64,000 nucleotides of DNA from an uncultured bacterium (GCA_963839205.1 CAWITU010000002.1:148627-212626), one strand, 5' to 3'. Positions 36,436 to 51,895 are shown, counted from the stretch's first letter. The notes: generated by a model not told the origin, from the letters alone. Program-made: numbers and translations.

Positions 36436-37243
36436 AACCATCACGACTGAATTATGTTAAAAACATCCAATTTTAAGCGGCCAAAATAACAGCTATTTTT
36501 AACTGTTGTCTTGAGAAGACCGCTAAAAGCGGTTTTTTTAATAACATAACCGACTGTAACTTGAAAAAATAATCCCGCAGCAACGTTCCCTTTTATACAA
36601 GGGGTCTTTAAGACGTTGAACAGCGGAAACAGGTAAATTCCAAACAGTAAGTTTGGAATAGTAGAATAAACAAAAAACGTGGTTTTTAAATATCCTAATA
36701 GGATATTAAGAGCGTATGGTGGATGCCTAGACTCCAAAGAGGCGATGAAGGACGTGGCGTAGCTTACGATAAGCTTCGGGGAGGTGCCTAGCAACCTTTG
36801 ATCCGAAGATTTCCGAATGGGGAAACCCCACTTGATTTAATTCAGGTGATCTCTTCGCAAGAAGAGGAGCAAACCCGGGGAAGTAAAACATTTCAGTACC
36901 CGGAGAAAAAGAGACTAATAAGAATTTCCTAAGTAGCGGCGAGCGAAAAGGAAGAAGCCCAAACTCAGCCTTCCTATAGAGGGCACTCGTAAACTCGTTT
37001 ACTCGAGTATGCGTCGTACACTCTATTGGGTGGCTGGGGGTTGTAAGGTGACAGTCGTATTTGATACAAAGAGTTACAAAATAATTCGTTAATAGAAAAC
37101 GCTGGAAAGCGTTGCCCTAGAGGGTAATAGCCCCGTACATGAAAATGAATTATCTCTAACTGTCATTCTTGAGTACTTCGAGACACGAGTGGCTCGGAGG
37201 AATCTGCCGGAACTAACCGGTAAGGCTAAATACTCTTGGAGAT

Positions 37244-37282
<39 letters not shown>

Positions 37283-38721
37283 GCCCGACGAGGGCAGTGA
37301 AATAGATCTGAAACCATACGTTTACAAGGTGTCGAAGAGGTGCTTGCACCTCGACGGCGTGCCTATTGAAGAATGAGCCAACGAGTTGATGCATATTGCA
37401 GACTAAGCCCGAGAGGGTGGAGTCACAGGGAAACCGAGCGTGAATAGCGCGTAAGTATTATGCATCAGACCCGAAGCCAAGTGAGCTTGTCATGTGCAGG
37501 GTGAACCAGGGAGAAATCTCTGGGGAGGCCCGAACCGGTAAGCCGTTCAATACTTTCGGACGACATGTGATAAGAAGTGAAAAGCTAATCGAACTTGGTA
37601 ATAGCTGGTTCTCTCCGAAATAGCTTTTGGGCTAGCGTCGGATGTTCCTCTTAGGGGTAGAGCACTGGAAGGTCTCGACAGGTCGAAAGATCGCGAGACC
37701 TATCAAACTCCGAATACTAAGAGTTAAGAATCCGGCAGTTAGACTGCGGGGGCTAAGCTCCGTCGGTCAAAAAGGAAACAGCCTAGATCTCAAGTTAAGG
37801 TCCCTAAATTTATGCTAAGTGCACTTAAGGCGGTGAAATTTCTCTGACACTGAGGAGGTTGGCTTAGAAGCAGCCATCCTTTAAAGAAAGCGTAACAGCT
37901 CACTCAGTAAGAGATTTCGCACCGAAGATAATCGGGGCTAAGCATAGTACCGAAACTGAGGGTTTATTTTGTCTTAGGACAAAGTGAGCGGTAGGAGAGT
38001 ATTCTAATCTGCTGTGAAGGTAAAGGGGTGACCCATACTGGAGCGTTTAGAAGTAAGAATGTTGGCACAAGTAACCACAATGCGAGTGAAAAACTCGCAC
38101 GTCGAAAGATCAAGGTTTCCTTGGCAATGATTGTCAGCCAAGGGTTAGTCGGGCCTAAGGGGATGGCGAACGCCGAACCCAATGGACACATGGTTAATAT
38201 TCCATGACTTCTTCATTTTCTGATGGAGTGACAAAGGTCAGTATTGTACGCGATTTATGGATTATCGTTATTGGATTAAGGGTGTTTTACAGGCAAATCC
38301 GTAAGACATAAGCCCAAGATCAGATAAAATGCTTCGCTTAGGCGAAGATAATGTACAAAAGCGGCCTTTCAAGAAAAGCTTCTAAAGATAAAAATGAAGG
38401 AACCGTACCGCAAACCGACACAGGTGATCAGCTCGAGTAGAGCAAGACGAACGAATGAGAGGTCCCCAAGGAACTCGGCAAAAAAGCAGCCGTAACTTCG
38501 GAATAAGGCTTGCCCTTTGTTAACTCAAAGGGCCGCAGCTAAAGTATCTCTGGCAACTGTTTATCAAAAACACAGCTCCCTGCGAACTCGTAAGAGGATG
38601 TATAGGGGGTGACACCTGACCAATGCCAGAAGGTCAAATATCGACGTTGATAGTAGCAATATTATTGGTGATTGATATAAGCCCTGGTGAATGTCGGCGA
38701 TAACTATAATCGTCCTAAGGT

Positions 38722-38956
38722 TCTCAACTGATTCTTTTTGAATGAGTTGAGAAGGACTGGGACGATCATAGGAAATGATAAATAGTTTTAATAATCAAAG
38801 TTAATTACACAAAAGCTACCTACAATGCAGTAATGTATTGTTAGTCCAATATGGTTAATAAGAGACCAACACCATACATCCTAAACAATTTTGCAACGGA
38901 CTTGTCCTCTGCGAAGTCGAAGGATGAAGATAGAGTCCAACTTGAAGGAATAGTTG
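38722..38956 (+). other. 235-nt group-I-like intron/IVS in 23S after U1931
   Basis: The flanks join to CCTAAGGT|AGCGAAATTCC (conserved sequence). The insert follows a T and ends in G. R/S-like blocks AAGAGACCAACA and AAGATAGAGTCC. No ORF. Confidence 0.65.
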
Positions 38957-39619
38957 AGCGAAATTCCTTGTCTGGTAAGTTCAGACGCGCACGAATGGTG
39001 TAATGACTGGAGAACTGTCTCGGGGACTTGTTCGGTGAAAATACAATACCGGTGAAGATGCCGGTTACCTGCAGTTAGACGAAAAGACCCCAGAAGCTTT
39101 ACTACAACTTGGTATTGAGGATATGTTTTTGATGCGTAGCATAGTGGTGAGACTTTGAAGTTTTGTTCTCGGATAAAATGGAGTCAACAGTGAAATAGCC
39201 ATCTTTAAAAATATATTTTCTAACCTCATCGGTAAAAACGGTGAGAGACAGTACCTGGCGGGTAGTTTTAGTGGGGCGCTATCCTCCTAAAGAGTAACGG
39301 AGGAGTTTATTAAGGTTAGCTAGGCGCGAATGGAAACCGTGCCGATAGTGTAATGGCATAAGCTAGCTTGACTGCAAGACGGATATGTCGAGCAGGTGCG
39401 AAAGCAGGACATAGTGAACCGACGGTCCGTATTAGATGCGGCCGAAGATTATCAGACAAAAGCTACTCTGGGGATAACAGGCTGGTTGCGCCTAAGAGTC
39501 CAAATCGACGGCGCAGTTCGGCACCTCGATGTCGGCTCATCATATCCTGGGGCTGGAGAAGGTCCCAAGGGTTTGGCTGTTCGCCAATTAAAATGATACG
39601 CGAGCTGGGTTCAGACCGT

Positions 39620-39916
39620 TCAGAATCGAATTTTTTCGGTTTTGGACCGTCTGAATCGTCGAGGAAATATTATTGTTGCGACCACGCAATATCTGTTAAC
39701 TTGTCCATCACGGCGGCCATAAGGAGAAATTCTTGTGTGCACAGCTGACTTATATCGGTGAATTCCACATTCTATGAAAAGAAGTGCGAGGACGCCTAGG
39801 GAAAATAAAACGAAATTTTATTGCCCGTAGAGACTAAACGTCAGCCATCTTCGTTTGAATTTATTCAAAACAGATGATTACATAGTCCATTCCACACAGT
39901 GATGTGTGAAAAGAAG
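39620..39916 (+). other. 297-nt group I intron in 23S after U2593 (peptidyl-transferase centre)
   Basis: The flanks join to GGGTTCAGACCGT|CGTGAGACAGGTT. The insert follows a T and ends in G. R-like GTAGAGACTAAACG (39827-39840) pairs via GACTA/TAGTC with S-like ACATAGTCC (39880-39888). No ORF. Confidence 0.75.
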
Positions 39917-39968
39917 CGTGAGACAGGTTGGTCTCCTATCTACTGCAGGCGTTGATTTTTGAGAAGAT

Positions 39969-39999
<31 letters not shown>

Positions 40000-40310
40000 T
40001 GACCTCTGGTGTGTCGGCTGTCCTGCCAAGGGCACTGCCGAGTAGCTAAGTCGGGAAAGGATAAACTCTGAAAGCATCTAAGAGTGAAGCCTACTTCAAG
40101 ATTAGAAATCGTAAGACCCGTAGGAGATGACTACGTTGATAGGCGCTAGGTGTAAGACAAGCAATTGTTTCAGCCGAGGCGTACTAATTGTCATTCCTAT
40201 TAGGAAATTTGGAAGTCACGCATTTGTTTATCGGCGCAGGCGAATATCAGTTGAAAAGGTTTTGCGCCACAGAATACCTGTTTAAATAAATTAAAGATCG
40301 AACGTTCAAT

Positions 40311-40419
40311 TCTGGTGATTTGGCGGAAGGGCAACACCTGTTCTCATTCCGAACACAGAAGTTAAGCCTTCTTGCGGCGATGATACTCTTTTGGAGGGGA
40401 AAGTAGCTAGTCGCCAGTA
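40311..40419 (+). rRNA. rrf: 5S ribosomal RNA
   Basis: TCTGGTGA..CCGAACACAGAAGTTAAGC..TCGCCAGT with paired termini, about 100 nt after the 23S. Confidence 0.9.
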
Positions 40420-49462: not shown

Positions 49463-49837
49463 ACCCCCTACGTCCTTAATGGGCGGTTCTTTGAAAATTA
49501 TCTGTCTAAAATCACGATTTATCTTGAATTTAGACAGATTGAAATATTGCCCTGTGTAGCTTTAGCGTAGAGCGGGTAGGACCGAGAACGTATTAACGCT
49601 CTGTATTGCCTCCTATCGAGCAGCTATGGAGGGAAAACGTGCAAGTCAATTAAAATATTTTTTTGTTCTCCCGCGGAGCTCGTCAGAGCAAAGTGGGAGT
49701 AAATAATTCCAAAAACAATGATCAATTGTTGGATGAGCTAGGATCAAACTTGTTGGTGAAATATAAATTTAGATTAAGTACTATTTTTTATTTTGCCTCA
49801 TTCTAATAAATATAAGTATTTATACTTTTTATTTAAT

Positions 49838-51324
<1,487 letters not shown>

Positions 51325-51819: not shown

Positions 51820-51895
51820 GCGCGCATAGCTCAGTTGGTAGAGCATTCGACTGATACTCGAAAGGTCCTAGGTTCGAACCCTAGTGCGCGCACCA
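51820..51895 (+). tRNA. tRNA-Ile (anticodon GAT), CCA encoded
   Basis: Manual cloverleaf: acceptor GCGCGCA/TGCGCGC, D arm GCTC-AGTTGGTA-GAGC, anticodon loop CTGATAC, T arm CTAGG-TTCGAAC-CCTAG, ACCA. Confidence 0.9.

Follow-up and report, generated by a model that had tools for sequence, protein, structure and literature searches.

The window, that is the whole 64,000-nt stretch of DNA analysed, carries a 23S rRNA gene at 36696-40204, located with the Rfam model LSU_rRNA_bacteria (3509 nt against a model of 2925 nt). 5S rRNA (40311-40419) and 16S rRNA (49834-51324) were located with Rfam as well, and tRNAs follow the 16S gene at 51820, 53488 and 53578; the rRNA genes are unlinked and lie in an unusual order, with 23S-5S (36696-40419) upstream of 16S on the same strand and about 9.4 kb away from it. 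The G+C content of the window is 38.5%, and the exons of its 23S gene share 87% identity with their counterparts in a Minisyncoccia MAG and in a Zambryskiibacteriota MAG. Relative to E. coli the 23S gene contains three insertions of 106 nt (36978-37083), 235 nt (38722-38956) and 297 nt (39620-39916). The first lies in domain I, after E. coli position ~287, and related CPR loci carry insertions of 70-100 nt at roughly this position. The third, also without an ORF and located at the L2593 site, gave a match to Intron_gpI of 38.1 bits (below 50) in which P4-P6 aligns, and looks like an ordinary small group I intron.

At the second insertion, local alignment to LSU_rRNA_bacteria left a block of 238 nt unaligned, and alignment with E. 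coli 23S rRNA in MAFFT placed 235 nt, 38722-38956, after position 1930 of the 2902-nt RefSeq copy. This position was taken as the conventional U1931 (counted from m5U1939, with an offset of +1). The insertion point is thus between U1931 and A1932 in E. coli numbering (U1931 by our own +1 offset), the site of the L1931 lineage; independently of numbering, the junction is the same as that of classical introns, e.g. in Thermosynechococcus (L115). Removal of 38722-38956 restores CCUAAGGU joined to AGCGAAAUUCC. The joined flanks read CGUCCUAAGGU followed by AGCGAAAUUCC, and no shifted boundary gives the same sequence; neither terminal base of the insert equals the adjoining exon base, which makes the boundaries unambiguous. 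The split of the 23S gene after U1931 by 235 nt, which the initial annotation had proposed, was therefore borne out by Rfam, by MAFFT and by the restored junction, and the insert is, as had also been noted, preceded by T and ends in G. The earlier statement that it contains no ORF longer than about 30 aa held as well: no ORF wholly inside the insert exceeds 20-21 aa, a 50-aa ORF (38851-39003) that runs over the 3' junction had no Pfam match, and an ORF scan combined with Pfam found no endonuclease ORF within the insert. The folding energy of the 235 nt is -59.9 kcal/mol (z = -3.8). With this folding z-score and 41 related copies that have a common fold and compensatory changes, the element is far beyond chance.

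Relatives at L1931 and the P4-P6 domain

One genome per species was scanned for the pattern AACTATAANNGTCCTAAGGTB (the 5' exon, then anything but A). At least 120 other loci with insertions share the junction, classical L1931-type introns among them, and two families, A and B, were distinguished among the matches listed. Family B is the classical type, which begins with UAAC followed by GCUAGCCUUAGUAAAAC and is found in many phyla. Introns of family A open with a hairpin and then AAGGACUGGGACNGUUAU, and at their 3' end AAGAUAKRGUCC precedes a short hairpin and the final base; the loci of this family with an organism name are nearly all from Patescibacteria/CPR MAGs, with a few automated labels of other groups. 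A locus labelled as a Woesearchaeota archaeon MAG (L011, JBBIPM010000104.1) has a bacterial-type 23S junction and a classical 631-nt L1931 intron, and may be a binning error. Further family A members were added by a metagenome scan, whose pattern was not specific enough (some 90 of 120 loci proved to be classical L1931 forms or ordinary group I introns at other sites). Among these metagenome matches, a sample biased by the pattern, no minis were found at sites other than L1931. The working set comprised 61 family A introns, of which 19 are 'full' forms with a normal P4-P6 and 42, including the window intron, are 'minis' of 178-353 nt.

Between the 5' strands of P3 and P7, full forms contain J3/4, P4, P5 and P6 (74 nt to several hundred), as in the layout CAUGGC-UAUAU-GCUGGGAA...AUCAGCAGGGAAG...CCCUC-AGAGACCA, and a full form scored with Rfam (L145, 42.6 bits) aligns through P4, P5 and P6. 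In 42 of 42 minis only 5-7 nt are found there (UAAUAA in the window intron), and the 88 positions that the Rfam model has between the two strands of P3, comprising P4, P5, P6 and the P7 5' strand, face 7 nt in the alignment. The P4-P5-P6 arrangement between P3 and P7 that marks group I introns is thus absent from the window intron and from all 42 minis. The linker at 38772-38814 cannot hold P4-P6, since it is reduced to just 21 nt in the smallest mini (L029, 178 nt in total). The minis keep the catalytic and substrate domains and have lost the entire P4-P6 domain; that they are group I derivatives devoid of the scaffold is very probable.

Some full forms encode LAGLIDADG_1 proteins (E = 1e-23 and 1e-27), which argues for descent from mobile introns. 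Eleven of the 19 end in A, C or U and not in G (L047, L060, L104, L106, L071, L145, L163, L142, L010, L090 and L096), and in four of these (L047, L060, L104 and L106) U-A replaces G-C at the G-binding position of P7, as the sequences were read. A precedent for non-G ends is a Coxiella 23S intron that, by the title of a 2007 report by Raghavan, reportedly has no terminal G. Among the minis, L190 (metagenome contig Ga0306872_103282) lies in a host with a divergent helix 69 region (AAGAGACUACCGUAAGGU); Pa and PX are seemingly absent from it, and the altered exon has its complement in the 5' end of this mini (AGUCUCGGUGG).

Fold, guide sequence and exon clamps

For the comparative fold, 23 minis, extended by 18 nt on the 5' exon side and by 12 nt on the 3' exon side, were aligned (mean column identity 52%); the structure was written from the window sequence (Table 1) and then scored. 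Of all cells, 93.0% were paired, versus 34.5-42.8% when the partners were slid by 1-3 columns. Compensatory changes were found in 38 of 70 pairs, versus 18-28 of 67-70 with slid partners, and the covariation score was 0.445 versus 0.07-0.09; none of 500 shuffles reached the observed values. RNAalifold, run without a given structure, recovered the exon pairing, Pa, P10, P2, P3 and P8. Exons and core hardly vary, so the support for P1, P10 and P7 comes from conservation.

Table 1. Features of the L1931 intron and its exon partners (window coordinates).
Feature	Position	Strand	Remarks
Whole intron, L1931 site of 23S rRNA	38722..38956	+	235 nt; junction restored on removal; placed by Rfam and MAFFT
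5' exon target CUAUAAUCGUCC	38704..38715	+	Exon -18 to -7, helix 69 loop and 3' strand; complementary to 38760-38771
P1 5' exon strand AGGU	38718..38721	+	5' splice site after U38721; paired in 22-23 of 23 aligned sequences
5' terminal hairpin Pa	38722..38752	+	13 bp, UUUUU loop, from the first intron base; 13/13 pairs covary; recovered by RNAalifold
PX 5' strand GGACU	38754..38758	+	Pairs with 38843-38847
Second exon-binding sequence GGACGAUCAUAG	38760..38771	+	Pairs with 38704-38715; RNAalifold agrees
A-rich linker	38772..38814	+	Variable length; conserved UAAAYA motif, two columns invariant and one nearly so
Internal guide sequence GCUACCU	38815..38821	+	Exact complement of the ligated exons (AGGU joined to AGC); 94 nt into the intron
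P2 hairpin	38822..38841	+	8 bp, GNRA loop GUAA; 8/8 pairs covary
PX 3' strand AGUCC	38843..38847	+	Pairs with 38754-38758
P3 hairpin	38850..38876	+	UAUGGU (38850-38855) pairs with ACCAUA (38871-38876); 5/6 pairs covary
P3 loop, 15 nt	within 38850..38876	+	UAAUAA, then P7 5' strand G[A]GAC (38862-38866), then CAAC
P8	38878..38925	+	Base AUCCU/AGGAU and extended inner hairpin; 4/5 basal pairs covary
J8/7 (GAAGAUAGA) and P7 3' strand (GUCC)	38926..38938	+	Near-maximum Rfam posterior probabilities
P9 (AACU/AGUU)	38939..38955	+	3/4 stem pairs covary; loop AGGAAU (38946-38951)
Terminal G (omega G)	38956..38956	+	3' splice site after it; G in 42/42 minis
3' exon	38957..38968	+	AGC (38957-38959) in P10; AUUCCU (38963-38968) with the P9 loop

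The check proposed with the initial annotation, a search with Rfam RF00028 (Intron_gpI), returned a match of 23.7 bits (E = 4.4e-4 in a 371-nt search) that covers P3, P8, J8/7-P7 (GAUGAAGAUAGAGUCC) and P9 and does not reach the curated gathering score of 50; Rfam scans that rely on thresholds will accordingly miss or mislabel minis. The blocks that had been likened to the group I R/S core were identified as core elements: AAGAGACCAACA (38860-38871) includes the P7 5' strand G[A]GAC, and AAGATAGAGTCC (38927-38938) is J8/7 with the P7 3' strand. The catalytic domain (P3/P7 pseudoknot, P8 and J8/7) is present, with covariation in P3 and P8 and largely invariant P7 and J8/7. Invariant columns of the insert in the 23-mini alignment comprise most of J8/7 (five of nine columns, AAGA and one A), both P7 strands (all four columns of the 3' strand), much of the guide, part of the P9 loop and the terminal G. 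P7 consists of G38862-C38938, the bulged A38863 and G38864-C38937; the G and C of the latter are invariant in the 23 sequences, and this pair, after the bulged A, is the predicted G-binding position. What stands of the original description as an ORF-less group-I-like intron after U1931 is the site, the boundaries, the lack of an ORF and the ancestry; a standard group I architecture is what the insert does not have.

PX is found in the variants GGACU/AGUCC, UGACU/AGUCA and GGAUU/AAUCC, with one covarying pair in the 23-mini alignment and more in the larger set. RNAalifold extended P2 by pairing CU of the guide with AG of AGUCC; this was rejected because the variants GGAUU/AAUCC and UGACU/AGUCA fit PX only. 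A reading of the three GGAC/GUCC repeats as P3, P4 and P7 (P3 = 38754/38902, P7 = 38896/38935) was dropped because covariation among the homologues differs from it. A long imperfect hairpin (38703-38773) can be drawn from 19 nt at the end of the 5' exon and ~50 nt at the start of the intron, and plant and animal microRNA-precursor models gave weak, chance-level matches to it (E = 1.3-9.6); these are explained by the exon pairing together with the Pa hairpin. The P2 loop is of the GNRA type in nearly all minis (exceptions include UAAA in L154 and L240), and its sequence (38830-38833 in the window) tracks the P8 helix (38878-38882/38921-38925): GUAA occurs with CC:GG tandem C-G pairs, GUGA (two related members, L093 and L109) with CU:AG, a C-G/U-A step, and GAAA with either. 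Matching of a GNRA loop type to its receptor helix is a known rule, which this pattern fits. It hints at a loop-helix tertiary contact between P2 and P8, and the evidence is thin since there are only two GUGA cases.

A P1/guide pairing had been sought by eye without success in the initial annotation; the guide is nevertheless present, far from the 5' end of the intron. P1 is made by its ACCU and the 5' exon, which places A opposite U-1; P10 is made by its GCU and 3' exon bases 1-3, and is paired in all 23 aligned sequences. The intron ends in the G that group I introns have at this point, and the guide is complementary to both exons in all 42 minis. RNAalifold pairs U-1 with A32, so that the candidate partners of U-1 are A32 and A97. 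A simple P1 formed by continuing Pa into the exon was rejected: apart from U-1:A32 no pair forms there, with G, G and A opposite the next exon bases.

Opposite the splice-site U, every mini (42 of 42) has A and every full form (19 of 19) has G; the minis thus have a guide and a U-A pair at the splice site in place of the U·G wobble usual in P1. Since U accepts A and G alike as partners, a neutral site should show a mixture of the two across such divergence. The clean split suggests selection in both classes, and may also stem from a single ancestral event. In group I structures the wobble is read by J4/5 in the P4-P6 domain, and its loss in the minis is plausibly explained by the absence of the domain in which this reader sits.

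Both exons are contacted by further intron segments (Table 2). Across 58 members, on average 11.1 of the 12 bp of the pairing with helix 69 can form; this pairing has three covarying pairs in the 23-mini alignment, and seven exon variants are matched by intron variants. The P9 loop is complementary to nucleotides +7 to +12 on the 3' exon side, and P9 loops match their own exon variant better than the other variants. By this covariation the minis are shown to hold both exons through a helix-69 clamp and a P9-loop clamp.

Table 2. Exon variants and the matching intron segments.
Clamp	Exon segment	Exon variant	Intron variant
Helix 69	5' exon, -13 to -7	ACGGUCC	GGACUGU
Helix 69	5' exon, -13 to -7	AUCGUCC	GGACGAU
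Helix 69	5' exon, -13 to -7	AUCGUUC	GAACGAU
Helix 69	5' exon, -13 to -7	ACUGUCC	GGACAGU
Helix 69	5' exon, -13 to -7	ACCGUCC	GGACGGU
Helix 69	5' exon, -13 to -7	AUUGUCC	GGACAAU
Helix 69	5' exon, -13 to -7	ACGAUCC	GGAUUGU
P9 loop	3' exon, +7 to +12	AUUCCU	AGGAAU
P9 loop	3' exon, +7 to +12	AUACCU	AGGUAU
P9 loop	3' exon, +7 to +12	UUUCCU	AGGAAA
P9 loop	3' exon, +7 to +12	GUACCU	GGGUAC

Removal of the minis from 23S rRNA

The insert is best explained, with somewhat better than even confidence, as a reduced descendant of the CPR/Patescibacteria L1931 group I lineage that is still spliced by the group I route. This route is the most economical one because the G-binding pair, J8/7, a guide for both exons and the terminal G are all conserved, and the comparative data make removal of the minis by group I chemistry likely. 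Guanosine bound in P7 would attack after U38721 in the first step; in the second, the terminal G would replace the guanosine and the exons aligned by the guide would be ligated, after which helix 69 and its neighbouring helices would fold. The exon clamps and the 5' junction would take over the positioning done by P4-P6 and by the wobble receptor. In the drawn structure hardly any linker is left where PX, the helix-69 pairing, P1 and P2 converge, and these helices would form a four-way junction. Pa begins exactly at the 5' splice site, and the rigid junction, rather than a wobble read by J4/5, would mark the point of cleavage and hold P1 against the core. That the minis form an autonomous natural subclass derived from group I introns, 178-250 nt in length, without P4-P6 or the U·G wobble and with splice sites placed by the four-way junction and the exon pairings, is put forward tentatively; full autonomy in splicing, judged from the sequences, is somewhat doubtful.

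The strongest rival is a catalytically dead relic, which would fold partly like a group I intron and be removed by host or phage-derived protein machinery, be cut without ligation, or be retained. The scaffold domain and the U·G wobble are indeed absent, and the 11 full forms without a terminal G indicate that the lineage tolerates departures from the canon. The L1931 intron of Simkania is on record as 'unspliced', reportedly, by the title of a 1999 paper by Everett. Degenerate group I introns of lichen fungi, according to the summary of that work, fail to splice in vitro and are yet removed in vivo (PMC8527467). Against a relic, the terminal G, the G-binding pair, J8/7 and the two-exon guide are kept in 42 diverged minis, and folding away would need none of these; CPR genomes are small, and no LAGLIDADG homologue was found in the 64-kb window. 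The site between helices 69 and 71 lies at the subunit interface, where a retained insert of 235 nt is hard to reconcile with the location. A relic is on this evidence unlikely, while carrying appreciable weight.

Two further explanations would supply the missing scaffold from elsewhere in the precursor or from within the mini, and both are very improbable. P4-P6 of another intron in the precursor (here that at L2593, 39620-39916) might dock on the mini core and complete it in trans; a second group I intron with P4-P6 does exist in the same 23S gene, and P4-P6 can be supplied in trans to the Tetrahymena ribozyme in vitro. In no fewer than eight loci (L073, L077, L093, L196, L123, L155, L182 and L203), however, the 23S gene has no insertion of 200 nt or more besides the mini, so help from a second intron does not serve as a general answer. 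Alternatively, the insert might be an ordinary group I intron with a mis-assigned P4-P6, for instance with PX/P2 as a relocated P4-P5: PX and P2 form a stacked two-helix unit with a short A-rich linker to P3, which could fill the place of the scaffold in three dimensions. PX/P2 is not P4-P6, however, since full forms have PX/P2 and in addition a canonical P4-P6 between P3 and P7; moreover, the strand order would be unlike that of every group I layout, and L029 has no spare nucleotides. Least probable of all is an RNase III-type IVS or an expansion segment: although such insertions are common in CPR 23S genes (PMC11270868) and the long imperfect hairpin at the 5' junction could be taken for one, the ends of the insert are not paired in a long stem that replaces an rRNA hairpin tip (the 5' end is a hairpin of its own and the 3' end is P9), the site is the conserved single-stranded linker between helices 69 and 71, cleavage in the long hairpin would cut helix 69 itself, and the group I core motifs and guide are present and conserved.

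Whichever way the minis are removed, they are a natural family without P4-P6 and the U·G wobble that is nonetheless held by selection in many lineages. To our knowledge, both features are treated as universal for group I introns and their catalysis, and few RNA folding domains have been studied as much as P4-P6. Should the minis prove to self-splice, they would be a minimal natural group I catalyst; they would count as the smallest group I-type ribozymes in nature and parallel the engineered 'minimal catalytic domain'. They would also show how a scaffold can be replaced by a junction together with exon clamps, and would provide very small splicing modules to engineer with. Without self-splicing, CPR bacteria, whose genomes measure about 1 Mb, would need a new way to remove a dead intron from the large subunit.

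Comparison with known systems

A literature search of incomplete coverage returned no natural group I intron without P4-P6 and none with a family-wide U-A pair at the splice site. A survey of rRNA insertions in CPR bacteria names position 1931 as often occupied, with LAGLIDADG_1 genes there, and puts the number of ORF-less group I introns of 23S genes at 222 (Rfam, E-value 1e-5), without structures; its supplement does not itemise the insertions at 1931 (Tsurumaki et al. 2024, PMC11270868). The full forms of family A were likely counted there as group I introns at 1931. By a rough rescaling of E-values, the minis may pass the cut-off of that survey and sit in its count as well.

Classical L1931 group I introns occur in Simkania, Thermotoga, Synechococcus and organelles, including those of green algae (PMC1995217). 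They are like the minis in insertion point, in the P7 and J8/7 signature and in the type of guide (GCU + NCCUUAG in theirs, GCU + ACCU in the mini), and their long forms carry LAGLIDADG genes. They differ in a length of 250-750 nt, a full P4-P6, a guide located no more than ~20 nt from the 5' end and the U·G wobble. In the starts of classical introns that were inspected, short of a dedicated comparison, the family A 5' hairpin, GGACU with the helix-69 stretch and the AGGAA P9 loop were not seen. The full forms of family A (such as L145, L071, L035 and L044) share with the minis Pa, PX, the helix-69 stretch, the guide, the GNRA-capped P2, P3, P7, P8 and P9 with the AGGAA motif in its loop; they differ in the presence of J3/4 and P4-P6, in G opposite the splice-site U (19/19), in the LAGLIDADG_1 genes of some and in the non-G ends of 11 of 19.

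The shrunken group I introns of lichen fungi have a mean length of 233 nt and, as summarised for that study, no self-splicing in vitro (PMC8527467). Like the minis they lie in rRNA genes and are shrunken; by the same summary, they have lost sequence needed for catalysis and are removed in vivo. They differ in being eukaryotic nuclear introns in other rRNA genes, and the summary through which they were compared names no loss of P4-P6 combined with a U-A pair. An engineered td ribozyme from which P4-P6 was removed, as cited at second hand, keeps about 1/1000 of its activity (Ikawa 2000, cited in PMC2879505), so a group I core alone can be catalytic. It resembles the minis in that the P3-P7 core is kept and P4-P6 is gone. 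It is a laboratory deletion and ~1000-fold slower, whereas selection maintains the minis as a natural family, which in addition has exon clamps and a U-A pair at the splice site.
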